Shown piece by piece: positions 11,374-41,489 of a DNA stretch of 64,000 nt (the first letter of the stretch is position 1; each line of letters begins with the position of its first letter). This DNA comes from Gammaproteobacteria bacterium (GTDB lineage: Bacteria > Pseudomonadota > Gammaproteobacteria > JACKNK01). The position numbers and the translations under genes are program-made. The DNA is taken from the NCBI GenBank assembly GCA_024234955.1, contig JACKNK010000006.1, positions 204,782-268,781 of the forward strand, read 5' to 3'. The notes under the pieces were generated by a model. It saw only the letters and a list, made by a program, of their open reading frames with translations, did not search any database and was not told where the DNA came from.

Positions 11374-11853
11374 TCAGCCCGGATAGATCGCCACCACGCG
11401 CCACTGCCAATCGGCAAACCCGAGGCGAAAATGCAGCGGGTTTCTGCCCAATTCGCCGACACGCACCATGAATCGATTCCAGTTATCGAAGAAGGCGTAA
11501 TCGATCCGACCGACGAGGGGGGGAAACTGCCCTTTTCGCGCCTCAGCGCCGGCAAGCTGGCCGCGCACCCAGTCCACATCGACCACGGTATCGACGGCAC
11601 TCTCACCCAAACGCTTGGCGCCCGCCCGGAGCATGCTGGAAATGGGGTCATCCCCCTGTCCGATGGCGGAGTTGGCCCGTTGTTCTATGCGGGTGCGCTG
11701 ATCTTCCTTGACCGTTGCGATGTCGATCAACGCGGCCAGTGTGGCCTTGTCATTCGCTTGCAGGGCCTGATCCAGGCGGTAAATCTGGGCATAGGGATAG
11801 GCCACCCAGAGGATGGCGGCGATAAGGATCAGGGAGGACAGCAGTTTCTTCAT
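11374..11853 (-). CDS. DUF2939-like periplasmic protein
   Basis: 159 aa. N-terminal signal/anchor MKKLLSSLILIAAILWVAY. Overlaps the stop of the upstream PEP-CTERM gene. Confidence 0.5.
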   Translation of the reverse strand: MKKLLSSLILIAAILWVAYPYAQIYRLDQALQANDKATLAALIDIATVKEDQRTRIEQRANSAIGQGDDPISSMLRAGAKRLGESAVDTVVDVDWVRGQLAGAEARKGQFPPLVGRIDYAFFDNWNRFMVRVGELGRNPLHFRLGFADWQWRVVAIYPG

Positions 11854-12878
11854 GTGACTCGTCGCAGTAAGGGAATGGTGGCCGACAACATCAGCAACAA
11901 GGTTGCCGGCTCGGGAATGGGCATTTCAACGCTGTTGATCGCGGCGACCACCGCACCGGCGGCGGCAATCCGGTTGTTGGTGTCGAAGCGGATGCTCTGT
12001 TCCATCTCGATATGCACGAAATCGGCGCCCAGGGACCGGGTGTAATCCCCCTGCACATTGGTGGTCGCGCCGAGGCCGGCGAAGTCCTGTCCATCGACTG
12101 AACCGTTGATGGCCTGGTTCAGCACATCATTTACGTCAAGCGTGTTGTAGCCGTAGGTCACCAGTCCCGCCGCTTCGAGAAACGCATCGACGGCGAGCAT
12201 ACCGCTGCTAACGCTGCCGTCGCCCGCCGTGACCACGGCATCGGTATCGGCGGGCATGATCGGATGATTGTCCAGGTTGAAACCGTGTATCTGCCAGGCG
12301 TCGCGTTCCCCGGCCCCGGTCCACGCTTCATGCACTTCCTGAAAGATCGATTCGGTCAGGTGGGCCACATCGGCGGTCCCGACACCGTTGGCATTGCGGT
12401 GCGCGCCCGCCATCAGGAACCCTGCCGCGTTCACATCCCGGTAGATGCTGGCGGCGATTTCCCAGCTGTTGGTGTCAAAGCGCGGGTGCGGCGCCTCGAT
12501 CAGGACCTGGACATCGGCGCCGGTGTTGAAAAAGTACGATCCCCAGCCACGGGTCTGCTGATCGTTGACCAGTTGCTCACGCAGGCCGAGATACGTGTTC
12601 CCGGTGTTGCTGTCGGTGAATTCAACGACTTCGTAGTCCAGGGCGGCGGCCTGCGCATCCGCCGAGACCGTATCGCCACTGGCGATGCTGTTGGCGAGAC
12701 TGCGAAAGGCGCTGCGTTGGGCCAGATCCGGCGCCACATACAGATTGCTCCCGGAGACGAAACTGAGGTTCTTGAGGCGCTCGACTTCATCAATGAAGCT
12801 GCCGCTCTCGATGAGCATGGCCTGGGCCTGACTGCCCATGAACAAAATACCGGCGGCGACCAATCTTTCCAGACGCAT
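11850..12878 (-). CDS. Secreted protein with a C-terminal PEP-CTERM sorting signal (putative exosortase substrate), function unknown
   Basis: Start MRLERLVAAGILFMGSQAQA is a signal peptide. C-terminus PIPEPATLLLMLSATIPLLRRVT has a PEP motif, a TM helix and basic residues. The raw ORF's long N-terminal extension (694 aa) is rejected. Confidence 0.65.
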   Translation of the reverse strand: MRLERLVAAGILFMGSQAQAMLIESGSFIDEVERLKNLSFVSGSNLYVAPDLAQRSAFRSLANSIASGDTVSADAQAAALDYEVVEFTDSNTGNTYLGLREQLVNDQQTRGWGSYFFNTGADVQVLIEAPHPRFDTNSWEIAASIYRDVNAAGFLMAGAHRNANGVGTADVAHLTESIFQEVHEAWTGAGERDAWQIHGFNLDNHPIMPADTDAVVTAGDGSVSSGMLAVDAFLEAAGLVTYGYNTLDVNDVLNQAINGSVDGQDFAGLGATTNVQGDYTRSLGADFVHIEMEQSIRFDTNNRIAAAGAVVAAINSVEMPIPEPATLLLMLSATIPLLRRVT

Positions 12879-27814: not shown

Positions 27815-28300
27815 TCAGGTCGTATCGCCAATCAGCCGCGATAGCATCGCGTCCACATCCGAGCCCCGGGGCGTTTGGTCCAACGGGGTCCAGGATTGAT
27901 CCGCCTCCAGCCGAAAACTACCGACGAATTCATGGGGCGGTCGGCTTCCCCATTCACGGGGTGACAACATCGACCAGAGCGTGCGGTCATCGTCGCGTCG
28001 ATACAGGTGGTAAACCTTCCCCGGGATACGTTTGAAGGCGCATTCGGCGCGATGCAGTTCCTGGTCCCGGCGCGCACCCTCCAGAATGCGCCGGGCCTCT
28101 TCCTGCAAGGCCTGCATCTGGTCGGCGATGACCCGCAGCTTGGCGTGCGTATGGGTCGCGACCGAGGCATCCGCGCCACTGATCTGGCGGGCGATGTCCA
28201 CCAGATCGGTCGCCGCCCCGAGTCGGCTGACTGGGTAAGGCGCACTGCGGGCATCGCCCTGATGGTTCGGGCCGGAATACTTGCTGGCGTCATCGGCCAT
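27815..28300 (-). CDS. Conserved hypothetical protein (possibly DUF2452-like)
   Basis: 161 aa. Last gene of the minus-strand operon 30809→27815. Confidence 0.45.
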   Translation of the reverse strand: MADDASKYSGPNHQGDARSAPYPVSRLGAATDLVDIARQISGADASVATHTHAKLRVIADQMQALQEEARRILEGARRDQELHRAECAFKRIPGKVYHLYRRDDDRTLWSMLSPREWGSRPPHEFVGSFRLEADQSWTPLDQTPRGSDVDAMLSRLIGDTT

Positions 28301-28309
28301 GTCGTTCGC

Positions 28310-28783
28310 TCACAGGTGTTCGTCGATACCGTGCGCCTTCAGGCCCCAGGCGAACAGCGAACTGACCCGCTTGTTGGCGGTGCGCAGGCGCTCGGCCAGG
28401 GTGTTGAGCAGGTCTTTGAGAACCGGATACCCGACTTCCGGATGGGCATCGAGGTACACGCGCAGGATGTCGCCGGGGATCACGCCCAGCTCGCAGTCGC
28501 TGATCGCGACCACGCTGCCACTGCGCGGTTTCAGGTCGAACAGGCACATTTCGCCAAACACCGTGCCCGGCCCAAGATCGCTGTATCCGGGGCGCAGACT
28601 GCGGTCGTCGTCGAGCGCGACTTCACCGACCACCCGTACCGTCCCGCTCAAGACCACGAACACATCGCACTGGCTGTCGCCTTCGTTGAAAACGTGTTCG
28701 TGCACCGTGCAAAGGCGCCGCTGCCACGCGTCACCTTCGGGAAAGTCGGGGGAGTCGAGCAGATTCTTGAGTGCGTTGGACAT
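28310..28783 (-). CDS. Stand-alone cyclic-nucleotide-binding (CAP-family) domain protein without a DNA-binding domain
   Basis: 157 aa. …GTVFGEMCLFDLKPRSGSVVAISDCEL… is the cNMP-binding beta-roll with the phosphate-binding cassette (GEM…R.A). No HTH. Confidence 0.7.
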   Translation of the reverse strand: MSNALKNLLDSPDFPEGDAWQRRLCTVHEHVFNEGDSQCDVFVVLSGTVRVVGEVALDDDRSLRPGYSDLGPGTVFGEMCLFDLKPRSGSVVAISDCELGVIPGDILRVYLDAHPEVGYPVLKDLLNTLAERLRTANKRVSSLFAWGLKAHGIDEHL

Positions 28784-28788
28784 GAGAT

Positions 28789-29625
28789 CTATCCGGGGTG
28801 ATCGGTGGGTTTGTGACCGGTGGCAACAAAGACGGCGGCGAAGCCCCAGGCTTCGGGATCGTCGCTGATCTGACGGATCACGGCTTCTTCCGCCTGACCG
28901 AGCTGCTTCTGTTCGTCGCTGAGCTGTTCGAGTTTGAAGCCGGTGGTGATGTCGAGAAAGTTGCGCATGCCGAGGTCGGCACTGGTCACGGTATGCACGA
29001 ACACGCCAACCTGATCGAACCCGTTGCGCGCCAGCAGGGTGCCAAGCTTGCGCCCGACATGGCGGTCACCTCCCCGTGCCTGCTGAGCCTGGGCGGCACG
29101 TTGCGTGAACGAGGTGAAGGTTTCCGGTTCCGGGAACAGCGTCAGCCAATCGTCATCGATGTCGAGAATCGCAAGAATGCCGCCCGGCTTTAGTGTGCGC
29201 AGAGCCGCTTCGAAGGCGCGTTCCGGGTGTTCGAGATGCTGAAACAGGAAACGTGCGTAAATGAAATCGAACTGCGCCTCGCCCAGATCGAGTTCATAGA
29301 CATTGGCCTGCTGGAAACGGAGATTCGTCAGCCCGGCGGCGTCCGCCGCCGCCTGCGCTTCCTTGAGCAGATCGGGACTCAGGTCAACACCCGTGACCCG
29401 ACCGTTACCCACCATGCGCGCGATCTCGCAACTGACGATCCCGGGGCCGCAGGCCATGTCCAGGACATCCATGCCTTCCCGCAATCCGGCCCGACTGAGC
29501 AACTGACGTTCCAGCGCGGTGGCAATCGCCGCCTGCTGCTTCAGACGATCGAGCTCCTTCTGGTTCTCATCGAAGCTGCCAAAGGCGTAGGAACCCGCAG
29601 CGGTATGGGTATTGCTGGTGCTCAT
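28789..29625 (-). CDS. Class I SAM-dependent methyltransferase
   Basis: VLDMACGPGIVS is motif I. 278 aa. ATGA overlap with the upstream gene. Confidence 0.75.
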   Translation of the reverse strand: MSTSNTHTAAGSYAFGSFDENQKELDRLKQQAAIATALERQLLSRAGLREGMDVLDMACGPGIVSCEIARMVGNGRVTGVDLSPDLLKEAQAAADAAGLTNLRFQQANVYELDLGEAQFDFIYARFLFQHLEHPERAFEAALRTLKPGGILAILDIDDDWLTLFPEPETFTSFTQRAAQAQQARGGDRHVGRKLGTLLARNGFDQVGVFVHTVTSADLGMRNFLDITTGFKLEQLSDEQKQLGQAEEAVIRQISDDPEAWGFAAVFVATGHKPTDHPG

Positions 29626-30809
29626 TCGTTTTCGGTTTCCTCAAGTTGTTGCAGGGTATCGAGCCAGTTCTGGGTGGTGCCGCGCAGGCGCTCGCAGAGA
29701 ATCACCGACAGATTCAGCAGCACCGGGGCAACGATTTCCGGCATCTTTTTCAAGGCGCGCTTGATGAAGGACTGGGTCAGGATCAGCAGTTCCATATCGG
29801 TATTGGCCACCACCTGGGCGGTGCGCGGCGTCTTGGCGACGAACGCGATCTCGCCGAACACCTGACCAGGACCGACCACCGCCAGGGAATGGCGTTTGCC
29901 ATCCGCATCCCGCCCCCAGACCTCGGCGACGCCATCGAGCACGACGAACATCTCGTTACCGATGTCCCCCGGACGGATGATGATCTCACCCGCCTTGCAG
30001 GGCAGCACCGTACCGGAATCCAGAAAGGCCCGCGCCTGCACTTCGTCCAGGCCTTTGAGCAGGCCGATGCCTTCGCGCGGATCGACATGCAGGCGGTCTT
30101 CCATCAAGGCCCAGAACCCATCGGTATCGACCAGGCGCTTGTTGATATGGACGGCATGCGCCGGGAATTCCGCGATAAACCATGCGGTCCCGGTCGCATC
30201 CGCCGGCAGTTTGCGGGCCTCGCGCCAGAACGGGGAGCGCACCGCCCTCATGTGTTCGATGTCCTCGGCCATGAACACCAGCGGGACGTGGTAGCCGGCA
30301 TCCTTGTCCATGAAGCCATCGGCGTAACGGCGATACCCGAGCTGCTCGTAAAACTCGACCAGGGACGGGGTGCAATTGCAGAAATCGAAACGCACGCCGT
30401 TTTCGCGGGCGAAGCGGAATATGGCCGCGAGCAACGCGGCGAGAACCGTGGACCCGCGCCAGTCCGGCGCCACCATCAGGCGAGAGGTCATGGACAGGGA
30501 TTTCGCGGGAAATTCGGCCCAATGTTCGAGCTGATAAATCCGGTTCCAGTACGCATCGAAGCCGGTCTCACCCGCGAGATTGATGCGCACCGTGGCCACA
30601 ATCTCTTCCCCGGCGGCGGCATAAAGCAGGGTCGCTTCATCGTCCAACGGGTCGTAAAGTCGCTTGCCCGCATGGTCGGCGTAGCTCGGGCGTTTGCCCA
30701 TTTCTTCTACGTAAACCGCATAGCGAAACCGATAAATACGCTCCCGCTCCGCTTCCGTAGCGGCAACCTGAATCTCAGGCCGGACGAGATTATCGATGGA
30801 TTCGTTCAC
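29622..30809 (-). CDS. Autoinducer-synthase-like N-acyl amino acid synthase (GNAT) fused to a C-terminal cNMP-binding domain
   Basis: N-terminal half RIYRFRYAVYVEEMGKRP…FCNCTPSLVEFYEQLGYRRY resembles LuxI/FeeM-type acyltransferases (exosortase-associated N-acyl amino acid synthase family). C-terminal half …PGQVFGEIAFVAKTPRTAQVVANTDMELLIL… is a cNMP-binding domain. 395 aa. Confidence 0.6.
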   Translation of the reverse strand: MNESIDNLVRPEIQVAATEAERERIYRFRYAVYVEEMGKRPSYADHAGKRLYDPLDDEATLLYAAAGEEIVATVRINLAGETGFDAYWNRIYQLEHWAEFPAKSLSMTSRLMVAPDWRGSTVLAALLAAIFRFARENGVRFDFCNCTPSLVEFYEQLGYRRYADGFMDKDAGYHVPLVFMAEDIEHMRAVRSPFWREARKLPADATGTAWFIAEFPAHAVHINKRLVDTDGFWALMEDRLHVDPREGIGLLKGLDEVQARAFLDSGTVLPCKAGEIIIRPGDIGNEMFVVLDGVAEVWGRDADGKRHSLAVVGPGQVFGEIAFVAKTPRTAQVVANTDMELLILTQSFIKRALKKMPEIVAPVLLNLSVILCERLRGTTQNWLDTLQQLEETENE

Positions 30810-30847
30810 AAGGGCTCCGCATCAATGTCGAGAAATACGCACCGGAT

Positions 30848-30864
30848 TGTAATAAACAGTTACT
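30848..30864. promoter_or_regulatory. Imperfect inverted repeat TGTAA-N7-TTACT in the divergent promoter region; candidate regulator operator
   Basis: Lies in an AT-rich 120-bp intergenic region between the two divergent operons. Half-sites are reverse complements apart from the last base. Confidence 0.2.
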
Positions 30865-30929
30865 TTCTTGATCGCTGTCCGCATCGTATTCTTACCCGAC
30901 TCAGAGTTTCTGTTCCAAGTCATTGATAA

Positions 30930-32249
30930 ATGAAACGTCTTCTTTCCCTGACGCTTTTCGTCACCTGTTTGTCAACCACCACCCCAGGTGTGGCCGGCAT
31001 TGTCGAAGACATCCAAAAGCTATTCCAATCGGGAGATGCCGCCGGTGCTTACGCGCTTGGACAGCAACACCTGCTGGCGCTGGAGGGAGATCCGGCCTTC
31101 GACTACGAATACGGTGTGGCCGCCATTGATGCAGGCCATTACAGCCAAGGGGTATTTGCGCTCGAACGTGTGCTGCTGCAGACGCCAAATGATCACCGTA
31201 CCCGCCTTGAGCTCGCACGCGGCTATTTCTTGCTGGAACAGTTTGATCGGGCGCGCAAGGAATTCGAAACCGTGCTGGCATCGGAGCCCCCCCAAAGCGT
31301 GGCGGAAAATATCCAGCGCTTCCTCAACATCATCCGAATCCAGGAAGGCCGATACAAATCCACGGCCAGCCTCACCCTGGATCTTGATCGCGGCTGGGAC
31401 AGCAACGTCAACAGCGCGCCCTTCAGCCCAAACTTCGAGTCCCCCGTGCTTGGCCCAGGCACTCTGGCGGCTGGGTCCACCCAACTCGGTGATTATTACA
31501 CTGAGGCCAATGTCGGAACGTCGCTGACCATCCCGGTTTCACCAGGCCGTTACATCGGTGCGGCTTTCGACATCCATCACCGCAGCAACGATCAGCGGGA
31601 TCTGTTTGATACCGACGCACAGACCCTGACCCTGTCCCTCACCGACAATGTCGACACCCTGCAGACCCGCTTCGCTTTCCGTGCGCAGAACTACGAGCTC
31701 GACCACAGCACCTACCGAACCTTGGGCAGCCTTTCCGTCGACGCGCGTCAAACACTCAGTGCGGACACCCAGATCACCGGGTTCCTCAGTTTGGCGAGCC
31801 AACATTACCCTGGGGGAGATGTTCGCGACTCACACCTGATGAACGCAGGTATCGGCGTCATTCACGCCTTGCCGCTTCCGGGTAAACCAGTCGCCTTTGC
31901 CACCGCGTACATTGGTCAGGAAACGCCCCGCCAGAACAACACCGACGCTGATGTGGTGGCCAATCGAGCGATCAAGGGACTGAGCGGTGGGATCCAATGG
32001 ACGCTTGGACCCTCGACCAGTCTGACAGCTACGCTCGCATGGCAGAACAGCCGCTATGCAGGCGAGAGCCCGATCTTTCTCGCCCGTCGCGAGGACGATT
32101 TTGGCAGTGCCGGCGTCACCCTCAAACACCTGCTTGATGACCGATGGAGTCTCAGTGCGGAATTGAGCACCTCCACCAACGACTCCAATTTCGCGATCAA
32201 CAAATACGACCGTGATGTGGTCAACATGAACTTGCGTTACGAGTACTGA
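30930..32249 (+). CDS. Outer-membrane protein with N-terminal TPR-like domain and C-terminal beta-barrel (DUF560 / Slam-like surface-protein translocon)
   Basis: Signal peptide MKRLLSLTLFVTCLSTTTPGVAG. TPR-like helices. Alternating amphipathic strands. C-terminal …MNLRYEY with an aromatic last residue. Confidence 0.5.
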   Translation: MKRLLSLTLFVTCLSTTTPGVAGIVEDIQKLFQSGDAAGAYALGQQHLLALEGDPAFDYEYGVAAIDAGHYSQGVFALERVLLQTPNDHRTRLELARGYFLLEQFDRARKEFETVLASEPPQSVAENIQRFLNIIRIQEGRYKSTASLTLDLDRGWDSNVNSAPFSPNFESPVLGPGTLAAGSTQLGDYYTEANVGTSLTIPVSPGRYIGAAFDIHHRSNDQRDLFDTDAQTLTLSLTDNVDTLQTRFAFRAQNYELDHSTYRTLGSLSVDARQTLSADTQITGFLSLASQHYPGGDVRDSHLMNAGIGVIHALPLPGKPVAFATAYIGQETPRQNNTDADVVANRAIKGLSGGIQWTLGPSTSLTATLAWQNSRYAGESPIFLARREDDFGSAGVTLKHLLDDRWSLSAELSTSTNDSNFAINKYDRDVVNMNLRYEY

Positions 32250-32260
32250 CGCTCGTCTCA

Positions 32261-34474
32261 ATGTCCCGTCAACGTCTCGTCCGACTCCTGCTCAGCCTTG
32301 CAATCACCGCGCTCTTCGCTATTCACGCGATGGGCGCCCGTAGCCTGCCCTTCATCGAACAACTGGAACGCTGGGGCTACGACCTGCGCCTGATCGCCAC
32401 ACTCAAGGGTGGCATCGACAAACGCATCGTGATTGTCGACGTCGACGAAGCCAGCCTCGCTGAGGTCGGGCACTGGCCCTGGCCACGCGACACCCTGGCG
32501 CAACTACTGGACCAATTATTCGCGCACTACCAGATTTACATTCTCGGCATGGATATGGTTTTCGCCGAGGCTGAAGGCAAATCCGTCCTCTACGAGCTGG
32601 ACCGCCTCGCAACCGGCCCCCTCTCAGGCCAGCCCGGGTTTATCGAGGCCTACCACACCTTGCGCCCAGGACTTGAGCATGATCGCCTGTTCGCGGAAGC
32701 CATCGGTCGGGGGTTTGTCGTCACTGGCTTCTCCGCCTCACAGCGCCCCGGCACACATGGCGCCTTGCCGATCCCCTTGGTCAGCCCGGTGCCACCCGAT
32801 ATTGATGCCCTGCCACTGTTTGAACGCTATGGCGTCACCGGCAACCTTGCCGAGATCCAATCGGCAGCCGTTGGCGGGGGCTTCTTTGACAACCCTGCGT
32901 TTGACCCGGACGGCGTCTATCGCGGTGTGCCGCTGGTCTACAAGCACGCGAATGCCCTATACAGCTCCCTGACACTGTCCATGCTGCGGGCGATGCTCGG
33001 CGACCCGCCGGTTGAGCTGGAATATGGCGATCCCCGAAATTCGGAACTCGATTCAATCCGGATTGGCGAAATCCGCATCCCGGTCAATCAACAGGGAATC
33101 GCCTTGGTCCCCTATCAAGGCCGCACCCCCGCATTCCGCTATGTATCGGCTGCGGATGTGCTCACTGGCCGCACCCCTGAGGAAGTCCTCGACAACGTCG
33201 TAGTGATCCTGGGTACCACCGCTCCCGGCCTTTACGACCAACGCACCACACCAATGCAGTCGAATTATCCCGGGGTAGAGGTGCATGCAAACCTGCTCGC
33301 CGGATTGATGAATGAAATGCAGGCAGACACCGCATTGCACAGCATCCGTCACCGGCCCGGCTGGACAGTTGCTTACGATTTGGTGTTGGTACTCGCTCTT
33401 GGTCTCATCCTCTCATTGACGCTCCCCTGGTGGGGGCCAGCATCCGGCATCTCCCTGGTATTGGCACTCGGAGCCGGTCTGATCGGCGGCAATCTCTACG
33501 CCTGGCAGACGCACAACATGGTATTGCCGTTGGCAGGACAGCTGTTACTTCTGTTGACACTTCTGCTTTTCCATAGCGCCTACGGGTACCTAATCGAAGC
33601 CCGCAACAAACGCCGTATCGGTCGCCTGTTCGGGCAATACGTGCCGCCCGAAATCGTGGGTGAAATGAGCAAGCATCACAGCAGTTTCGGCATTGGCGGT
33701 GAATCGAGGGAAATGACCGTGCTGTTCTCCGATGTGCGCGGCTTCACCACGGTTTCTGAAGGGCTCGCACCGGATCAGCTCACTGCACTGATGAATGCGT
33801 TCCTCACGCCTCTGACCGGCGTCATACATAGCCATCGCGGCACCATCGACAAGTACATGGGTGACGCGATCATGGCCTTCTGGGGTGCCCCTCTGGATAA
33901 CCCCGCACACGCCTCGCTGGCAGTAGAGGCCGCACTAGCGATGCAGAGCCGCGTGCGCGAACTGGACACACAATTCAAGGCTCGAGGCTGGCCGGCGCTG
34001 GCCATCGGCATCGGTCTCAACACCGGTCATATGAACGTGGGCAACATGGGGTCGGAGTTTCGCATGGCATATACCGTGCTTGGCGATGCGGTAAACCTCG
34101 GCTCGCGTCTCGAAGGTCTGACCAAGTTTTATGGCGTCGGCATCATTGTCAGCGCGAGCACCCAAGACGCAGCAACGGGTTTCGTTTATCGCGAACTGGA
34201 TCGGGTCCGGGTCAAAGGCAAACACGAACCGGTGGCGATTTTCGAACCACTGGGTTCGGTTGACAGCATCGCTGAAGAGCGCGCCGCCGAGTTGGATTTG
34301 TGGAACCGCGCATTGACGGCTTACCGAGGCCAGAATTGGGCGAAAGCCCTGGAAACGCTGGATCGACTGGCTGATGACCGCCTGACCGAGATCTACCGCA
34401 TGCGCATCGAACAACTGTCAACGCAAACGCTGCCCGACGACTGGGACGCCGTATTCGAGCATCAGAGCAAATAG
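32261..34474 (+). CDS. CHASE2 sensor-domain class III adenylate/guanylate cyclase
   Basis: Periplasmic CHASE2-like region between an N-terminal TM helix and three further TM helices. Cyclase core FSDVRGFTT…DKYMGDAIMAFWG…YTVLGDAVNLGSRLE. Confidence 0.8.
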   Translation: MSRQRLVRLLLSLAITALFAIHAMGARSLPFIEQLERWGYDLRLIATLKGGIDKRIVIVDVDEASLAEVGHWPWPRDTLAQLLDQLFAHYQIYILGMDMVFAEAEGKSVLYELDRLATGPLSGQPGFIEAYHTLRPGLEHDRLFAEAIGRGFVVTGFSASQRPGTHGALPIPLVSPVPPDIDALPLFERYGVTGNLAEIQSAAVGGGFFDNPAFDPDGVYRGVPLVYKHANALYSSLTLSMLRAMLGDPPVELEYGDPRNSELDSIRIGEIRIPVNQQGIALVPYQGRTPAFRYVSAADVLTGRTPEEVLDNVVVILGTTAPGLYDQRTTPMQSNYPGVEVHANLLAGLMNEMQADTALHSIRHRPGWTVAYDLVLVLALGLILSLTLPWWGPASGISLVLALGAGLIGGNLYAWQTHNMVLPLAGQLLLLLTLLLFHSAYGYLIEARNKRRIGRLFGQYVPPEIVGEMSKHHSSFGIGGESREMTVLFSDVRGFTTVSEGLAPDQLTALMNAFLTPLTGVIHSHRGTIDKYMGDAIMAFWGAPLDNPAHASLAVEAALAMQSRVRELDTQFKARGWPALAIGIGLNTGHMNVGNMGSEFRMAYTVLGDAVNLGSRLEGLTKFYGVGIIVSASTQDAATGFVYRELDRVRVKGKHEPVAIFEPLGSVDSIAEERAAELDLWNRALTAYRGQNWAKALETLDRLADDRLTEIYRMRIEQLSTQTLPDDWDAVFEHQSK

Positions 34475-34476
34475 CC

Positions 34477-37167
34477 ATGAGCCATACATCATCCTTGAAA
34501 CCCCAGCTCATCCCGCCAGCCACTGTGGCCTGGCTGGGGCTGGTCGTGGTCGCCATGTTGCTGCTGGTATCACCGACATGGGCGGCTGAACCGATCGGAA
34601 AACTGATTGTCGCAGCGGGCAAGATTGAGGCCCTTGGCGTGGACGGCAAAGTCCGACGTCTGCGTCGCCAGGCCGAAATCTACAAGGGCGACACCCTGAT
34701 CACCGGCGGAGATGTGTTCGCGCAATTGCGCTTCAAGGATGGGGCATTGATCGCGCTGCGTCCAGACACCGAGTTCACCATCGAGGACTACCGCTTCGAC
34801 GGTGCCGAGGATGGCAGTGAACGCGCCATCTTCAAGCTGATCAAGGGCGGCTTCCGCACCATTACCGGCGCGATCGGCCACAAGAACAAGGAGAACTACC
34901 AGGTCTCCACCCCAGTCGCGACCATCGGCATCCGTGGCACCCACTATGGTGTCCGTCAGGTTACCCCTGAGCTCGCCGCGCAACGGCGGCAAGCTGGGGA
35001 GGACATTCAGCCCGGGTTATATGGCGGCGTCGTTGACGGAGAAATTGCTGTCCGCAACGGCGGTGGCGAAAATACCTTCGGCAATGATCGTTACTTCTAT
35101 GTGGCCAGCCCCGATGCCGCACCAGAGACCCTGATTGCGCCGCCCGGCGTGGTCTTCGATGAGGACGCCTCCAAACAGGCGGACAACCAGGACGACAATG
35201 CGGCGGATGGCGACAATCAGGGACAGGACGACACTCAGCAAGCACAGGGCAATGGGGACGACCAACAGGGCGATGGAGAAGGGACGGAAACCGCGCAGGG
35301 TGGGGCAGAAGGCGATGGCGCCTCTGCGGACCAGCAAGCGGGCGTCGAGGATGGGAATGGCGATACGACAGGTGACGGGGGCGAACCGGTCGGATCAGTC
35401 GCCGGCGATAGCACTAGCTCATCGAGCGATTCCGGCACCAGCTCGCGCACGGGCAATAGCACAGGCACCGGACCGTTAAGCAGCGCACTGGTGGTATCGA
35501 TCAATCCGGACACCAGCACCCTGCCAACGACTCTCAATAACAACGTCGTGCTGAGCACGTCGACCGAGAGCGTATTCACGTCCAACGAAACCGTGACGGT
35601 GAGCCAGGCCACCTCATCCTCGTTCACCCGGGCACCGGTGGGTGCCGGGGTGTCGCTGGCTTTCATTGATCGGCAAACCAGCCGCCTGGAACTGATAAGC
35701 AGTGTGCTTACCGACAACGGAACCGATAACTTTGCGATTTTTTACGACGTTGGAAGCAAGGACAACATTCAGGTCAAACAAGCTCGGACCCAAGGTTCCG
35801 GGGAATCCAATCAGACCCAGACGCATGCCTTCAATTTCGGTACTGCCACACTCGCGGAATTCGGGAAAGACGCTGCAAGCGGTGCCAGCTGGGGGCGTTG
35901 GTCTGGCGACTATGTCGTGACCACCGATGGCGCGAACAACGATCCGGTGACAGATCTTCACTTCGTGTATTCGCCCAGCCAGGCATCTTCCGCGACGATT
36001 TCCGCAGCCTCGAGCCGTGCCGAGCCAATCACTTTGTTTGACAAGATCAGCGACGCCACTACCGCCCCCACGGACCTTAACGGTAACGTCGGCAGTTACG
36101 AGTACTTTCTCGTTGGCATCAACTTCGCCACGCAAAAGCTCGTCGGGTACGAGGTCAAAGCCACTGTCGGCGGGGCAACCTATCAGGTCGAACTGCAGAA
36201 TGATCTGGCGCTTGCCGACGTTCTCAAAGATCAAAGTGCACAACTGACGGGCAAATGCACCGGTTGCGGAACCAGCACCAGCGTCACTTTGACCGGTGAT
36301 GGTTCGGTCATGTTCATCGACGATGCACTGAGTTACATCGGCGCCAGCTATTCACTTCGCGACAACAGCAGCAGCTACGGCATCGCCGGTGCTGCCGTAC
36401 TGCAGAGTGCGTTGACTCGGACCCAAGAGGTTAATGCCCCAAGCGGAGCAACCGCCCTCACCGCGTTTATCAGCGTGGACAGCAATTCCACCAAGAAGCG
36501 GGAAATTCAAGCCACCGTCCAGAATGGCACTACGAATTTGGTCAAGACCGCCACCGTGAACTCCGTCGGCAACGTCGTCACAAACACCATACAAGGCGCA
36601 AACACCAGCACAGAGAGTCGTTTCGAATCGAACCGTGCCTTCCTGACGGATACCGGTGGAAACACCGTCGGTGTCAACTGGGGGCGCTGGCAGGATGGCT
36701 GGAGCACCAAGATTTCAGGCGTCAACTCCGGTTCGGCGGGGCACGCCCATTTCATCTATTCAGACAAAGTCACCAATACCGCGAATTATCCCGCGCTCTC
36801 CTCGGCCTCATTCACATATCTGGGCGGAACATCCCCGACCGACGAGCTGGGACGGACAGGAAGTATCACCTCGGCAACGATGAGCGTGGATTTCCTCTCG
36901 CAATCCATCACTTCCTACAACATAAACGCGACCACTCCGGGAAGAACCTGGGCGCTCAACTCCACAACCACGACAAGCTTCGTCAGCGCCAAGAGCGGCA
37001 ACATGGCTCTCACCGGAACATGTACAGGTTGTAGCACAACGCCGGTAGTGGGTAGCGCGTCCACCGAATTCGTCGGCAACAACGCAAGCCATGCAATAAG
37101 CAGTTTTGGCGGCTCGATCGCCGACAACAGCAATCAGATTGTCGGCACCGCGTTGTTCAAGCGCTGA
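34477..37167 (+). CDS. Large secreted surface protein: N-terminal FecR domain, acidic low-complexity linker, Ser/Thr-rich region and two tandem roughly 260-aa C-terminal repeats
   Basis: Signal peptide. FecR-like GDTLITGGDVFAQLRFKDGALIALRPDTEF…GTHYGV. D/Q/G-rich linker at 35160-35420. Repeats start at SWGRWSGDY (about 35887) and NWGRWQDGW (about 36676). Each repeat ends with a C…TGxCTGC block. The protein ends …IVGTALFKR. Confidence 0.7.
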   Translation: MSHTSSLKPQLIPPATVAWLGLVVVAMLLLVSPTWAAEPIGKLIVAAGKIEALGVDGKVRRLRRQAEIYKGDTLITGGDVFAQLRFKDGALIALRPDTEFTIEDYRFDGAEDGSERAIFKLIKGGFRTITGAIGHKNKENYQVSTPVATIGIRGTHYGVRQVTPELAAQRRQAGEDIQPGLYGGVVDGEIAVRNGGGENTFGNDRYFYVASPDAAPETLIAPPGVVFDEDASKQADNQDDNAADGDNQGQDDTQQAQGNGDDQQGDGEGTETAQGGAEGDGASADQQAGVEDGNGDTTGDGGEPVGSVAGDSTSSSSDSGTSSRTGNSTGTGPLSSALVVSINPDTSTLPTTLNNNVVLSTSTESVFTSNETVTVSQATSSSFTRAPVGAGVSLAFIDRQTSRLELISSVLTDNGTDNFAIFYDVGSKDNIQVKQARTQGSGESNQTQTHAFNFGTATLAEFGKDAASGASWGRWSGDYVVTTDGANNDPVTDLHFVYSPSQASSATISAASSRAEPITLFDKISDATTAPTDLNGNVGSYEYFLVGINFATQKLVGYEVKATVGGATYQVELQNDLALADVLKDQSAQLTGKCTGCGTSTSVTLTGDGSVMFIDDALSYIGASYSLRDNSSSYGIAGAAVLQSALTRTQEVNAPSGATALTAFISVDSNSTKKREIQATVQNGTTNLVKTATVNSVGNVVTNTIQGANTSTESRFESNRAFLTDTGGNTVGVNWGRWQDGWSTKISGVNSGSAGHAHFIYSDKVTNTANYPALSSASFTYLGGTSPTDELGRTGSITSATMSVDFLSQSITSYNINATTPGRTWALNSTTTTSFVSAKSGNMALTGTCTGCSTTPVVGSASTEFVGNNASHAISSFGGSIADNSNQIVGTALFKR

Positions 37168-37521
37168 TTACCAGCTGAACAGCTTCCACATGGTTGGCAC
37201 CATGTCCTGCATGTTGCCCATCCGGCGCTGGTCGAGTCGCCCATCGCCGTCGGTATCGACGATATAGTAGGCGGGACCGATCGATGGGGTCACGCGGACC
37301 ATGTAAACCCGGCCGTTCTGCTTGTATTCCTCAATCCGTGCCGGCCCCTGGGGTGTCTGGATGATGCGCACGTCGGCAGGCGCGATCTGCGACGACTCTT
37401 CCGGGATGTCTGCAGGCATCGGCGGCGGGATTTCCGGCTCCGGAAATTGCGGGACAGGCGATGCTGCGAACACCGTCGCAGTAAACATCATGGCAGGCAG
37501 GGCAAGGCTCAAACGACGCAT
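37168..37521 (-). CDS. DUF2782-like periplasmic protein
   Basis: 117 aa. Signal peptide MRRLSLALPAMMFTATVFA. Convergent with the surface-protein gene with zero gap. Confidence 0.5.
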   Translation of the reverse strand: MRRLSLALPAMMFTATVFAASPVPQFPEPEIPPPMPADIPEESSQIAPADVRIIQTPQGPARIEEYKQNGRVYMVRVTPSIGPAYYIVDTDGDGRLDQRRMGNMQDMVPTMWKLFSW

Positions 37522-37648: not shown

Positions 37649-40360
37649 ATGTCCGACATCAAGCCCTTCATCCTGATCGACGGCGCGAGCTATCTGTTCC
37701 GCGCCTTCCACGCCCTGCCGCCGCTGACCAATGTGCACGGCGAACCGACCGGTGCGATCTTCGGCGTTGCCAACATGTTGCGGCGCATGCTCGACGAAGA
37801 CCGCCCTGAACACATTGCCTTCGTATTCGACGCCAAGGGACCGACCTTCCGCAACGAGATGTACCCGGACTACAAGGCCAATCGCCCGCCGATGCCGCAG
37901 GAACTGGCCGTACAGATCGAACCCTTGCTGACCCTGGTGCGCGCAATGGGCCTGCCGGTGGTGATGGAGTCGGGCGTCGAAGCGGACGACGTGATCGGCA
38001 CGCTGGCACGCCAAGCCAGCGCCGAAGGTCGCCACACCCTGATCTCGACCGGCGACAAGGACATTGCCCAGTTGGTCGATGAGCACGTCACCCTGATCAA
38101 TACCATGACCAATACGCGCATGGATCGGGACGGCGTGCGCGCCAAGTTCGGGGTGCCGCCGGAGCGCATCGTCGATTACCTCGCGCTGATCGGGGACAGT
38201 GTCGATAACGTGCCGGGCGTTCCCAAGGTCGGCCCGAAGACGGCGGTCAAATGGCTGGATCAATACGACAGCCTGGACGCGATCATGGCCGCTGCGGACG
38301 CGTTTACCGGCAAGATTGGTGAAAACCTGCGCGCCAGCCTCGAATGGCTGCCGATGGCACGCGAACTGGTGACCATCAAATGCGACGTTCCGCTGGATCG
38401 CACACCGGAACAGCTCAATCTTGCGCCCGCCGACACCGATACCCTGAAGACGCTGCTGGCCCGGTTCGAGTTCACCACCTGGCTCGCTCAAATCGAGGCA
38501 GGCAGTGATTCAAGCACCGCCCCGATCGTGGCCGCACCCGTTCCCGATGCCGCGCCCGAATACGACATCGTGCTCAGCGCCGACCAACTCCATCACTGGA
38601 TGGCGCGCCTGGAAGAGGCGGAACTGTTCGCCTTCGACACCGAAACCACCAGCCTGGATTACATGCAGGCGCGCATCGTCGGCTGCTCGTTCGCGGTCGA
38701 AGCGGGCAAGGCCGCGTATGTGCCGCTTGCGCACGATTACCCGGGCGCTCCCGAGCAACTCGATCTGCAAGTCGTGCTCGCCCGTCTCAAGCCGCTGCTT
38801 GAAGACCCCAAGAAGCTCAAAGTCGGACAAAACCTGAAATACGACATGGCGGTACTCGCCAATCACGGTATCGCGCTGGCCGGGATCGCGTTCGACACCA
38901 TGCTGGAGTCGTATGTCGCCGATTCCACCGGCAGTCGTCACGACATGGATTCCCTCGCCGAGAAGTATCTGGGCAAACAGACCATCCATTTTGAGGACAT
39001 CGCCGGCAAAGGTGCCAAGCAGCTGCGTTTCAACGACATAGCGATCGACGATGCCGGGCCATATGCCGCCGAAGACGCCGACATTACCCTGCGCCTGCAT
39101 CAGGCCTTGTGGCCGCGTGTGGCGGCGCAGGAAGGCACCAAATCGGTGTTCGAAAACATCGAGTTGCCGCTGATTCCGGTTTTGTCGCGGATGGAACGCG
39201 GCGGCGTGCTGATCGATGTCGCGCAGCTCAAACGTCAGTCCACCGAGATGGCGAAACGCATCCTGCAACTGGAAAAGCAGGCGCACGAAGCCGCCGGTCA
39301 ACCGTTCAATCTGGGCTCACCGAAGCAGTTGCAGGAAATTCTCTACGGCAAGCTGGGCATCGAGGTCATCAAGAAGACGCCGAAAGGACAACCTTCGACC
39401 GCCGAAGAGGTGCTCGAACAACTCGCCGAGACCCATGCCCTTCCGCGCCTTATCCTCGATTGGCGCGGCCTCTCCAAGCTCAAGTCCACCTATACCGATC
39501 GTCTGCCCGAGCAGCTCAATCCGGACACCGGGCGCGTTCATACCTCCTACCATCAAGCCGTGGCTGCCACCGGGCGGTTGTCCTCGTCGGACCCGAACCT
39601 GCAGAACATTCCGGTGCGCAGCGAGGAAGGGCGACGTATCCGCCAGGCCTTCATCGCCCCGCCAGGCCAGATCGTGATGGCGGCCGACTATTCCCAGATC
39701 GAACTGCGCATCATGGCGCATCTGTCCGGCGATGCCGGGCTGCTGGATGCCTTCGCGCACGGCGCCGACATCCATCGAGCCACGGCGGCAGAGGTGTTCG
39801 GACGTAACCCGGACGATGTTTCCAGCAACGAGCGCCGTGCCGCCAAGGCGATCAATTTCGGCTTGATCTATGGGATGTCTGCGTTCGGCCTGTCACGGCA
39901 GCTCGGTATCGAGCCCAAGGAGGCGCAGAAATACGTGGACCTGTATTTCGAGCGCTACCCCGGGGTAAAGGATTTCATGGAACGCACCCGCAAGCAGGCC
40001 CGTGAACAAGGCTTTGTGGAGACCGTGTTCGGTCGGCGCCTGTACCTGCCTGAGATCAATTCCAGCAATGTGCCCCGTCGTCAGGGTGCGGAGCGCGCCG
40101 CGATCAATGCGCCGATGCAGGGCACTGCCGCCGACATCATCAAGCGAGCGATGATCGCGGTGGATGCCTGGATCGAGAAGAAATCACCGCCCTTACGCAT
40201 GGTCATGCAGGTCCACGACGAACTGGTGTTCGAAGTGGACGCCGGTTTTGCCGACCAGGCCGAGAAGCAGATCGTCAAACTCATGGCCGGGGCCGCCGAA
40301 CTGGCGGTTCCACTGGTCGTTGACGTCGGGCGCGGAATCAACTGGGATGAAGCCCATTAA
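37649..40360 (+). CDS. polA: DNA polymerase I
   Basis: 903 aa with 5'-3' exonuclease, 3'-5' exonuclease and polymerase (…RRAAKAINFGLIYGMSAFGL…QVHDELVFE…) domains. Confidence 0.95.
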   Translation: MSDIKPFILIDGASYLFRAFHALPPLTNVHGEPTGAIFGVANMLRRMLDEDRPEHIAFVFDAKGPTFRNEMYPDYKANRPPMPQELAVQIEPLLTLVRAMGLPVVMESGVEADDVIGTLARQASAEGRHTLISTGDKDIAQLVDEHVTLINTMTNTRMDRDGVRAKFGVPPERIVDYLALIGDSVDNVPGVPKVGPKTAVKWLDQYDSLDAIMAAADAFTGKIGENLRASLEWLPMARELVTIKCDVPLDRTPEQLNLAPADTDTLKTLLARFEFTTWLAQIEAGSDSSTAPIVAAPVPDAAPEYDIVLSADQLHHWMARLEEAELFAFDTETTSLDYMQARIVGCSFAVEAGKAAYVPLAHDYPGAPEQLDLQVVLARLKPLLEDPKKLKVGQNLKYDMAVLANHGIALAGIAFDTMLESYVADSTGSRHDMDSLAEKYLGKQTIHFEDIAGKGAKQLRFNDIAIDDAGPYAAEDADITLRLHQALWPRVAAQEGTKSVFENIELPLIPVLSRMERGGVLIDVAQLKRQSTEMAKRILQLEKQAHEAAGQPFNLGSPKQLQEILYGKLGIEVIKKTPKGQPSTAEEVLEQLAETHALPRLILDWRGLSKLKSTYTDRLPEQLNPDTGRVHTSYHQAVAATGRLSSSDPNLQNIPVRSEEGRRIRQAFIAPPGQIVMAADYSQIELRIMAHLSGDAGLLDAFAHGADIHRATAAEVFGRNPDDVSSNERRAAKAINFGLIYGMSAFGLSRQLGIEPKEAQKYVDLYFERYPGVKDFMERTRKQAREQGFVETVFGRRLYLPEINSSNVPRRQGAERAAINAPMQGTAADIIKRAMIAVDAWIEKKSPPLRMVMQVHDELVFEVDAGFADQAEKQIVKLMAGAAELAVPLVVDVGRGINWDEAH

Positions 40361-40381: not shown

Positions 40382-40531
40382 ATGGCCGAATGGCTGGTGG
40401 AAAATTTCATCTGGGTCGGACTTGGCATCGTTGTGCTGCTGGTCGGCATCAAGGTCGTGATCGGCGGGATGCTTAAAAAGCTCATGGATGATTCTGCGGC
40501 GGCCAACGCCGACGCAAGCAACCAGGACTGA
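40382..40531 (+). CDS. Small single-TM hypothetical membrane protein
   Basis: 49 aa, MAEWLVENFIWVGLGIVVLLVGIKVVIGGMLKKLMDD… Not in the ORF track because it is under 60 aa. Found by reading the polA-cytochrome gap. Confidence 0.35.
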   Translation: MAEWLVENFIWVGLGIVVLLVGIKVVIGGMLKKLMDDSAAANADASNQD

Positions 40532-40544
40532 TTCCGAGGTATCC

Positions 40545-41489
40545 ATGCGTCGCGATTTGTTCGAACGCGAACCCCGCCGAAGCGCCTGGGGGGGCTTGCT
40601 CCTGATTCTGGTGGGCATCGGCCTCGCGCTTGGCGTCGATTACGGCGTGAAGCAATCCAACGCCGATACCTTCTGCACCTCCTGTCATTCCATGCAATGG
40701 GTGGCGGCGGAAGCCGGACACGGCGGACATGCGCACAATCCCAGCGGCGTCACCGCCAGGTGCGCCGATTGCCATGTCCCCCGCGATCCCGGTCCCTTGC
40801 TCTGGAACAAGCTGATGGCCGCCAGGAGTTTGCTCGCGGAATATCGGGGCGAGCTGGAGACGGAGGCGCAGTTCGAAGCCCATCGTTTCGATCTCGCCGA
40901 AACCGTGTGGCAACGCATGCTCGCCAACGATTCACGCGAGTGCCGCGCCTGTCATGACGCGCAGGCAATGGATACCGTCCGCCAGAATTCGCACGCCGCC
41001 AGCAAACACGAACAGGCGGAACGCGATCATCAGACCTGCGTCGAATGTCACAAGGGGATCGCCCATACGATGCCTGCGGAACCGGTAATCGCCAACACAG
41101 CCAATCCCGCAACGTCGCCAACCGAGCCTCATGGCCCGATCGTGCTGGACGATCTGACGCTGCAACCGATCCAGCCCGACTCGCCCCTTCCGCCGCCGCC
41201 TGTTCCCCCCGCAGCGACCAACCTGGATCGAACTTTTGTGATGGCCTCACAGTGTTTCGGATGTCATGGGGTGGATGGCATTTCTGCCGGGCCAGCGACC
41301 CCAAGCATCGCCGGCCTCCCTCACGACTCTCTGCGGGATTCGATGCGGGATATGCGTAGCGGCAAGCAGCCCAGCACGATCATGGGGCGCTTGTTGACGG
41401 GACTGTCCGACGCCGACATCGATGCGCTGGCCAACTATTTCAGTCGCCTGCCTGATCTCCGGCCAGCACAGATTGCCGATCCGGAATAG
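40545..41489 (+). CDS. NapC/NirT/TorC-family pentahaem cytochrome c (tetrahaem quinol dehydrogenase module plus C-terminal monohaem c domain)
   Basis: N-terminal TM helix. CTSCH, CADCH, CRACH and CVECH, plus C-terminal CFGCH followed by …IDALANYFSRL. Confidence 0.75.
   Translation: MRRDLFEREPRRSAWGGLLLILVGIGLALGVDYGVKQSNADTFCTSCHSMQWVAAEAGHGGHAHNPSGVTARCADCHVPRDPGPLLWNKLMAARSLLAEYRGELETEAQFEAHRFDLAETVWQRMLANDSRECRACHDAQAMDTVRQNSHAASKHEQAERDHQTCVECHKGIAHTMPAEPVIANTANPATSPTEPHGPIVLDDLTLQPIQPDSPLPPPPVPPAATNLDRTFVMASQCFGCHGVDGISAGPATPSIAGLPHDSLRDSMRDMRSGKQPSTIMGRLLTGLSDADIDALANYFSRLPDLRPAQIADPE

Follow-up and report, generated by a model that had tools for sequence, protein, structure and literature searches.

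The type 11 secretion system (T11SS), or surface lipoprotein assembly modifier (Slam) system, has been studied almost wholly for the nutrient-capture and immune-evasion lipoproteins of host-associated bacteria; in the described cases (TbpB, LbpB, fHbp, HpuA, hemophilin and the Pls cargo), an outer-membrane protein (OMP) made of tetratricopeptide repeats (TPRs) and a 14-strand β-barrel stands beside a Sec-dependent cargo that ends in a handle, or pedestal, and an 8-strand barrel. A T11SS cargo, as defined in the literature, combines a signal peptide with a variable effector at the N-terminus, a β pedestal/handle and, at the C-terminus, an 8-strand barrel, in some cases duplicated (PMC12282271); ten OMP sequence clusters are distinguished in the T11SS, and cargo has been surveyed for two of them only (PMC12282271). 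Here we describe three genes in a 64,000-nucleotide (nt) stretch of DNA from a gammaproteobacterium (assembly GCA_024234955.1, contig JACKNK010000006.1, positions 204,782 to 268,781; hereafter the window) that encode a T11SS/Slam-like OMP (p1), a CHASE2 sensor adenylate cyclase (p2) and a secreted FecR-domain protein with two C-terminal handle-barrel modules, the candidate cargo (p3). We consider it moderately probable that p1 and p3 form a cognate T11SS-like OMP-cargo pair coupled via FecR to the CHASE2 cyclase, and that adjacent cyclic nucleoside monophosphate (cNMP)-binding proteins read the resulting cyclic AMP (cAMP).

The inputs of CHASE2 domains have been described as unknown (PMC5192318). 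In Sinorhizobium meliloti, perception of a protein signal by CHASE2 cyclases depends on the outer-membrane protein NsrA (PMC7529298, PMC13001267), and a FecR-domain protein, SMc02177, is part of the same cAMP regulon (PMC5498481). The parallel with the window lies in an outer-membrane component needed for the input of a CHASE2 cyclase whose output is cAMP (PMC7529298, PMC13001267). The difference is that NsrA is a single protein of ~1,200 amino acids (aa) in which the C-terminal half itself forms the membrane barrel (PMC7529298); going by that published description, the locus described here is set apart by keeping the barrel p1 and the FecR protein p3 as separate polypeptides, the p3 barrels being of the soluble TbpB type. 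The C-terminus of p3, ...FKR, is not the aromatic one of an OMP, and the p3 modules resemble soluble barrels of the lipoprotein type, not OmpA/OmpX.

FecR proteins encoded next to CHASE2 histidine kinases are known from Burkholderia; the 'BiofilmReg' operon (response regulator, LysM-FecR protein, CHASE2 histidine kinase, DUF4136) likewise places a periplasmic FecR protein beside CHASE2 (PMC5192318), but its output is a histidine kinase rather than a cyclase and it has no T11SS-like OMP. Closer in gene content is a cluster of Campylobacterota comprising a CHASE2 adenylate cyclase, a phosphodiesterase, a 'FecR domain-containing OMP' and a TPR protein (PMC9239204). All four of its gene types co-localise in two of the loci related to the window (L011 and L022, see below), and three of them, without the phosphodiesterase, in the window itself; likened in this way by gene types, the Campylobacterota cluster is probably the same system in another phylum. 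It was glimpsed there in 2022 without the present interpretation: the paper noted the clustering only, drew no link to T11SS/Slam, contained no analysis of cargo barrels and called the FecR protein an OMP (PMC9239204).

In comparison with the known T11SS, the architecture of p3, read from its sequence and from models, matches the published cargo definition (PMC12282271). Multi-copy handle-barrel cargo is known (TbpB; surface proteins of Sphingomonas and Psychrobacter), as is the non-lipidated hemophilin. The locus differs in four respects: the roughly ten cargo architectures described so far do not include a FecR effector; the p3 family is almost entirely non-lipidated and carries 1-8 modules; the genomic context offers no TonB-dependent receptor or metal uptake and instead a CHASE2 adenylate cyclase and cAMP genes; and both p1 and the p3 module are too divergent for a direct PF04575 or PF01298 match. 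In the T11SS literature, FecR figures only as a neighbouring anti-sigma regulator, and a literature search found no link of T11SS/Slam to FecR-domain cargo or to cyclases. The T11SS itself is known; a large class of non-lipidated FecR-effector cargo with a dedicated OMP lineage, repeatedly linked to CHASE2 and cAMP, appears to be undescribed. The locus defines a large environmental cargo family with a cognate OMP lineage, both mostly missed by the standard Pfam models, and its repeated linkage to CHASE2 cyclases, cAMP phosphodiesterases and cNMP/GAF-binding proteins suggests a secretion system feeding second-messenger signalling. It thereby provides a concrete candidate for CHASE2 sensor input, parallel to the genetically defined, mechanistically open NsrA-CyaK pathway of S. 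meliloti, and cultured carriers exist (Marinobacterium lacunae AK27 and M. ramblicola D7).

The proposed OMP-cargo pair

The three genes lie on the plus strand at 30930..32249 (p1, 439 aa), 32261..34474 (p2, 737 aa) and 34477..37167 (p3, 896 aa); their translations were read, and the intergenic gaps of 11 nt (p1-p2) and 2 nt (p2-p3) make them one tight operon. Coordinates and Pfam domains agree with the original prediction, made from the sequence of the window, which had placed a CHASE2 cyclase gene between an OMP gene and a FecR gene.

The p1 protein has a signal peptide and ends in ...LRYEY, an aromatic C-terminus as is typical for OMPs. Its TPR domain (aa 21-139 = 30990-31346, +) is recognised by Pfam TPR_19 (5.7e-10), with further TPR_2 and TPR_9 matches, and corresponds to the helices of an AlphaFold2 model computed from a 115-sequence alignment. 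In this model, which reaches a predicted local distance difference test (pLDDT) score of 94.5, the TPR helices are followed by exactly 14 long β-strands (aa 145-438 = 31362-32243, +) modelled at pLDDT above 90; the 14-strand barrel had been anticipated for this gene. Foldseek relates p1 to the TPR-barrel exporters BcsC (1.3e-12, the best E-value) and PelBC, and by target-normalised TM-score its best matches are the 14-strand barrels OmpG (0.64-0.70) and CymA (0.54-0.57). No Slam structure was found among the PDB matches of p1, whether by sequence or by fold, and PDB sequence searches with p1, p3 and both family profiles returned TPR matches or noise, with no Slam or cargo protein.

The likeness of p1 to Slam rests on its homologs and on its predicted fold, a direct profile match being absent (TPR_Slam reaches 14.8 bits against a cutoff of 35.2). 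A homolog search retrieved 154 relatives; among the best 120 of these 154, about 77 are annotated with PF04575, and NCBI gives several the name "surface lipoprotein assembly modifier". When ten homologs sharing 31-41% identity with p1 (E 1e-52 to 1e-98), including the OMP of a locus devoid of a cyclase gene, were rescanned, all ten passed the SlipAM gathering threshold (25.8-56.8 bits against 22), with matches spanning nearly the whole 288-position model. Architecture and transitive homology thus identify p1, as far as sequence and model allow, as a divergent member of the DUF560/T11SS OMP superfamily: the original prediction of a Slam-like protein holds for the predicted barrel and for the homologs, and fails for a DUF560 match of p1 itself. 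In Burkholderiales-type loci the OMP is longer, about 600 aa, with extra TPRs.

The p3 protein starts with a signal peptide (aa 1-36, 34477..34584, +; h-region VAWLGLVVVAMLLLV, site TWA|AEP). A single N-terminal hydrophobic helix, the TWA|AEP site and the lack of a lipobox cysteine make p3 a non-lipoprotein of the Sec/signal peptidase I (SPI) type, the class being called heuristically from sequence. The protein has no internal transmembrane (TM) helix. The NCBI record of an identical protein (P0121) begins at 34495 rather than 34477, six codons later (MKPQL..., 890 aa), and both starts retain the signal peptide. The FecR region (aa 37-232, 34585..35172, +) has its Pfam core at aa 72-162 (2.7e-11) and also matches NCBIfam Lsa33 (7.4e-8), which agrees with the predicted non-lipoprotein carrying an N-terminal FecR domain. 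An acidic, low-complexity linker of 143 aa (35173..35601, +; G 16%, T 13%, S 13%, D 13%) leads to two repeats, the more divergent repeat 1 (aa 378-643, 35608..36405, +; handle plus barrel, HMM (hidden Markov model) 2.9e-66) and repeat 2 (aa 646-896, 36412..37164, +; terminal handle and ~8-strand barrel by AlphaFold2 and Foldseek).

BLASTP of p3 against itself found no repeat. In a Smith-Waterman alignment, aa 378-643 and aa 646-895 score 236, against 44 +/- 7 and a maximum of 70 in 300 shuffles; the two ~260-aa repeats, claimed from the outset, are real but divergent. Both contain the motifs WGRW, HF[VI]YS, PTD and LTGxCTGC. The C-terminus of p3, ...VGTALFKR, bears out the terminal G.ALFKR motif that had been singled out, and an ending of the form ...G[TA]A.L.[KQT]R is conserved in the family. 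Residues 840-847 (ALTGTCTG, 36994-37017), with an equivalent in repeat 1, belong to a conserved, CxxC-like module motif L.G.C.GC that occurs in at least 70% of the members of the family alignment; the module further has a near-invariant WGRW, a His about 20 residues on and GGT.PTD. From their conservation, these motifs could represent a disulfide or metal site, or a ligand or OMP-recognition surface.

The fold connects the module to known cargo. The AlphaFold2 model of p3 aa 641-896 (44-sequence alignment; pLDDT 95.8, predicted TM-score (pTM) 0.92) is all-β and in two parts, with about nine strands in the C-terminal half by its DSSP string. Among the top 50 PDB matches of this last repeat in Foldseek, 47 are Slam/T11SS cargo, 19 of them at E<=1e-3: the lobes of TbpB (C-lobe best, 8.5e-5), HphA/hemophilin, fHbp, HpuA and the C-domain of NHBA, with a Foldseek probability of 1.00 for cargo matches at E 8.5e-5 to 1e-3. 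The repeat had been expected to model as a handle plus barrel, and it does so, with PDB neighbours that are almost exclusively Slam-dependent cargo. By sequence, p3 matches neither PF01298 TbpB_B_D nor NCBIfam slam_lipo in the Pfam and NCBIfam scans; TbpB_B_D is reached by single family members only (E 0.1 and 0.0017) and slam_lipo by one of 44 modules (5.3e-5). The proposed check against a TbpB_B_D model hence failed for p3 and succeeded sporadically within its family, and the link between the module and known cargo is weak by sequence and clear by predicted fold.

Module-bearing proteins are numerous. Many FecR proteins of about 470-500 aa carry the repeat core at their C-terminal end. A word-indexed homolog search with the module profile yielded 8 proteins only; an exhaustive profile search of 1.84 billion representative proteins yielded 1,211 clusters at E<=1e-3 and 694 at E<=1e-10 (clusters at 50% identity). 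Tandem copies number 1-8 per protein with a period of about 270 aa, and in 157 of 171 proteins the last module ends the protein, with <=10 residues after it. An N-terminal FecR domain is present on 59 of 63 scanned members; 105 of 111 full-length members have an SPI-like N-terminus and five a lipobox-like string. The low-complexity linker between FecR and the first module has a family median of 69 aa, compared with 143 aa in p3. Short module-only proteins were considered as possible lipoproteins and rejected; they look like truncated metagenomic fragments and have no lipobox. Large members include P0148 (2412 aa), P0149 (2735 aa) and P0229 (3351 aa), and up to eight tandem modules, far beyond any described T11SS cargo, suggest long surface fibres.

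Some members carry 70-130 extra residues before FecR that start with a LysM-like WTV.SGDTLY, as in L026 (8393-8860), L027 (8450-8840 and 10778-11190) and L007 (9295-9900). Pfam LysM is sub-threshold on these extensions (18.5 and 13.4 bits against 20.9) and was not used as evidence; a genuine LysM-like start would link the N-terminus to peptidoglycan.

The pairing of p1 and p3 recurs across genomes. Using the module motif alone, 17 loci were found in GTDB species representatives and annotated with purpose-built HMMs; the motif was derived from a 7-sequence subset, so that the genome scan is biased toward modules carrying GVNWGRW. They include loci of Marinobacterium ramblicola, M. lacunae, Motiliproteus, Thiotrichaceae, Burkholderiales and Pseudomonadales. 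In 15 of 15 informative loci, the gene directly upstream of the FecR-module gene encodes a p1-family OMP (E<=1e-117); the remaining two of the 17 are cut off on the OMP side. Starting from the OMP, a FecR-module gene adjoins the OMP homolog in all five loci, one of which has two such genes. The expectation that the substrate gene adjoins the OMP gene is thus borne out in every informative related locus. In loci devoid of a cyclase gene, the OMP-cargo pair is flanked by unrelated housekeeping genes (ccm, PFK, H+-PPase), indicating that the invariant unit is OMP plus cargo.

Two variants of this unit may be added. In L027 (8450-12796), a single OMP gene precedes two paralogous genes for FecR-module proteins of 652 and 672 aa, and several cargos per T11SS OMP also occur in known systems. 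Burkholderiales-type loci (L003 and L004, 1-7861; L005, 1-7862; L019, 11175-17417) contain the pair without a cyclase gene and adjoining giant DUF7933/DUF11(CLIPPER)/SdrD_B repeat proteins of 1,500-2,100 aa; L003-L005 additionally have an OmpA-family gene.

The CHASE2 cyclase and its cAMP context

The topology of p2 is as expected for a CHASE2 cyclase: a first TM helix (aa 6-24, by hydropathy profile), a periplasmic CHASE2 domain (aa 22-383 = 32324-33409, +; Pfam CHASE2 7.9e-51), a bundle of three TM helices (aa 370-440, by hydropathy profile) and a cytoplasmic class III catalytic domain (aa 483-657 = 33707-34231, +; Pfam Guanylate_cyc 3.6e-19). It resembles class IIIb CyaB of Pseudomonas aeruginosa in having CHASE2 and Guanylate_cyc domains, and aligns with it (3r5g) over the catalytic domain at 1e-33. 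The Lys/Thr specificity pair, in which the Lys specifies adenine, is common to both; by comparison, the aligned Cya2 protein (2w01) has Glu...Gly at these two positions. Alignment to 3r5g and 2w01 also shows that p2 keeps both metal-binding Asp residues and the Asn/Arg pair, its catalytic motifs being FSDVRGFT, KYMGDAIM and YTVLGDAVNLGSRLE. The alignment to CyaB together with the Lys/Thr, Asp and Asn/Arg residues identifies p2, from its residues, as a CyaB-type CHASE2 adenylate cyclase. The cyaB gene itself is not known to be flanked by a Slam-like OMP or FecR-module gene.

A CHASE2 cyclase gene lies <=10 kb from the OMP-cargo pair in seven of the 17 loci and is placed differently from locus to locus: between the two genes, downstream in the same orientation, in convergent orientation or upstream. 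This linkage survives rearrangement, which argues for functional coupling; the chance expectation for such a rare gene in a 20-kb window is, by our own estimate rather than by computation, well under 1%. The cyclase link is frequent, not universal. Together with the published gene neighbourhoods (PMC5192318, PMC9239204, PMC5498481), these seven loci support the proposed partnership of FecR and CHASE2.

Further cAMP-related genes accompany the OMP-cargo pair. In Marinobacterium and Motiliproteus, cargo and cyclase are separated by genes for a class II cAMP phosphodiesterase and a GAF-T2SSE ATPase. The regions concerned are L011 10545-15844 (M. ramblicola) and L022 10534-15869 (a metagenome-assembled genome (MAG) of Motiliproteus), where the phosphodiesterase stands with a GAF-domain ATPase of the T2SSE/MshE type; L011 also has a GAF-HD protein downstream. 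The arrangement hints that the cAMP of the system may gate a pilus or secretion ATPase. In L008 (11098-16276), a gene for a class I CyaA-type adenylate cyclase adjoins that of the CHASE2 class III cyclase flanking the OMP-cargo pair, placing two unrelated cAMP synthases side by side. In L006, the closest non-identical locus type, a 111-aa open reading frame (ORF) without Pfam match (11564-11899), which the window lacks, separates the cyclase gene from the FecR-module gene.

Proposed export and signalling, and rival readings

In the mechanism that we infer from these domain identities and linkages, p3 would be exported by Sec and its signal peptide cleaved; its C-terminal TbpB-like modules would be recognised by p1 and taken to or through the outer membrane; and FecR, acting as a protein-protein relay domain, would communicate with the periplasmic CHASE2 domain of p2. 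In this way cAMP synthesis by p2 would respond to an event at the outer membrane or cell surface, and the cAMP would be read by a GNAT-cNMP acyltransferase and a small cNMP-binding protein encoded divergently upstream. A more specific version can be offered tentatively, as a possible rather than a probable combination of steps: p1 would translocate the handle-barrel modules alone, the linker being threaded through or alongside the 14-strand barrel, FecR would stay in the periplasm on CHASE2, and ligand binding at the surface would be passed mechanically to the inner-membrane cyclase. The T11SS would thereby have been co-opted as a signalling device spanning the outer membrane. If true, this would be the first defined input pathway for CHASE2, and a FecA/FecR-like relay built from a secretion system.

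Several observations weigh against this reading of p1 and p3 as a T11SS pair coupled to the cyclase. The Pfam scan of p1 gave no match to PF04575 SlipAM/DUF560 even at E<=0.1, and the module profile matched no cargo among PDB sequences. The global TM-scores of the module to TbpB, fHbp and others are 0.30-0.43 only, with 0.55 for the isolated NHBA barrel; a different orientation of the handle is plausibly one reason for these modest values. The annotated neighbours include no TonB-dependent receptor, which is the usual partner of cluster-1 cargo. In about half of the related loci, no CHASE2 gene lies within 10 kb, so that cyclase signalling may not be the ancestral or general role of the pair. 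The final topology of p3 matters as well: were the whole protein exported, as with hemophilin, FecR would lie outside and could not touch the periplasmic CHASE2 domain.

A rival view is that p1 fully exports p3 as an extracellular binding protein or adhesin with FecR as its effector, the cyclase and cAMP genes being merely regulatory or co-regulated and FecR never meeting CHASE2. The OMP-cargo pair is indeed self-sufficient in about half the loci, release is known for non-lipidated T11SS cargo such as hemophilin (PMC12282271), the FecR region resembles a Leptospira protein named 'surface adhesin Lsa33' by NCBI (7.4e-8), and Burkholderiales-type loci adjoin giant DUF7933/DUF11 surface proteins. 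Such plain secretion is nonetheless judged unlikely for the window: the cyclase gene is lodged between p1 and p3 with gaps of 2-11 nt, CHASE2 cyclase linkage is kept across several rearrangements, and FecR and CHASE2 are adjacent in operons without any T11SS OMP (PMC5192318), which suggests a direct periplasmic partnership. In another reading there would be no translocation: p3 would be a periplasmic co-sensor of the cyclase, its modules binding a ligand or docking on the TPRs of p1, while p1 would serve as a channel or scaffold through which the signal is admitted or relayed. CHASE2 and FecR are both periplasmic in the systems studied (PMC5192318, PMC5498481), p1 resembles TPR-barrel channels too, and the sub-threshold LysM-like N-terminus of some members would bind peptidoglycan. 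Since the module resembles the secretion signal of T11SS cargo in its fold, in its strictly C-terminal position and in its invariant pairing with an OMP of the DUF560 family (PMC12282271), and since proteins of up to 8 modules and over 2,400 aa resemble surface fibres rather than periplasmic sensors, we regard a purely periplasmic p3 as quite improbable.

Two further readings concern p1 and p3 one by one. With its best Foldseek E-values to BcsC (1.3e-12) and to PelBC, p1 might be an exopolysaccharide export porin of the BcsC/PelB/PgaA type unrelated in function to p3, and PF04575 is known to capture some PgaA proteins as well (bioRxiv 10.1101/2020.01.20.912956); but p1 has 14 predicted strands against the 16 reported for PgaA, no glycosyltransferase or synthase genes lie nearby and the neighbour is always a FecR-module gene, which leaves this reading very little credence. 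The Pfam FecR match is all that speaks for p3 as a FecR-type anti-sigma factor in classical FecI/FecR/FecA iron signalling, a reading with next to no probability: p3 has a cleavable signal peptide instead of a cytoplasmic anti-sigma domain or an internal TM helix, and no ECF sigma factor or TonB-dependent receptor is encoded among the annotated neighbours. Strand number, gene context and architecture effectively exclude both. With p1 modelled as a β-barrel OMP and the last repeat as a barrel similar to Slam-dependent cargo, the interpretation of the original prediction, a surface protein that is both a Slam cargo and a partner of the cyclase, is supported.

Divergent cNMP genes and flanking features

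Upstream of p1, a four-gene divergent operon (27815-30809, -) encodes a GNAT-cNMP fusion, a methyltransferase, a 157-aa cNMP-binding protein and a DUF2452 protein. The fusion (395 aa, 29622..30809, -) combines a FeeM/OlsB-like N-acyltransferase with a cNMP-binding domain (Pfam FeeM 8.2e-15, cNMP_binding 3.1e-21) and, from these domains, is a probable cAMP effector; a cyclic-nucleotide-gated synthase of N-acyl amino acids or lipids would itself be unusual. The SAM (S-adenosylmethionine)-dependent methyltransferase (28789..29625, -; Pfam Methyltransf_25 4e-24) shares this minus-strand operon, its gene overlapping that of the fusion by 4 nt, as does the stand-alone cNMP-binding protein (28310..28783, -; Pfam cNMP_binding 8.5e-15). 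The region between the cNMP-effector operon and the OMP-cyclase-cargo operon measures 120 nt (30810..30929); scans for promoters and terminators gave nothing above chance, with no consensus promoter in this region.

The GNAT-cNMP, methyltransferase and small cNMP-binding genes also stand beside the OMP-cyclase-cargo operon in L001 and L006, and the DUF2452 gene recurs in L001; in L025, one 353-aa ORF beside the operon matches both the GNAT and the cNMP queries. Downstream of p3, the window encodes a DUF2782 protein (37168-37521, -), DNA polymerase I (37649-40360, +) and a NapC/NirT-type tetrahaem cytochrome (40488-41489, +). This gene order is common to the window and to L001, a locus of a Chromatiales-like MAG, which marks L001 as a close relative of the window; p3 is 58% identical to its L001 counterpart over the repeat region.

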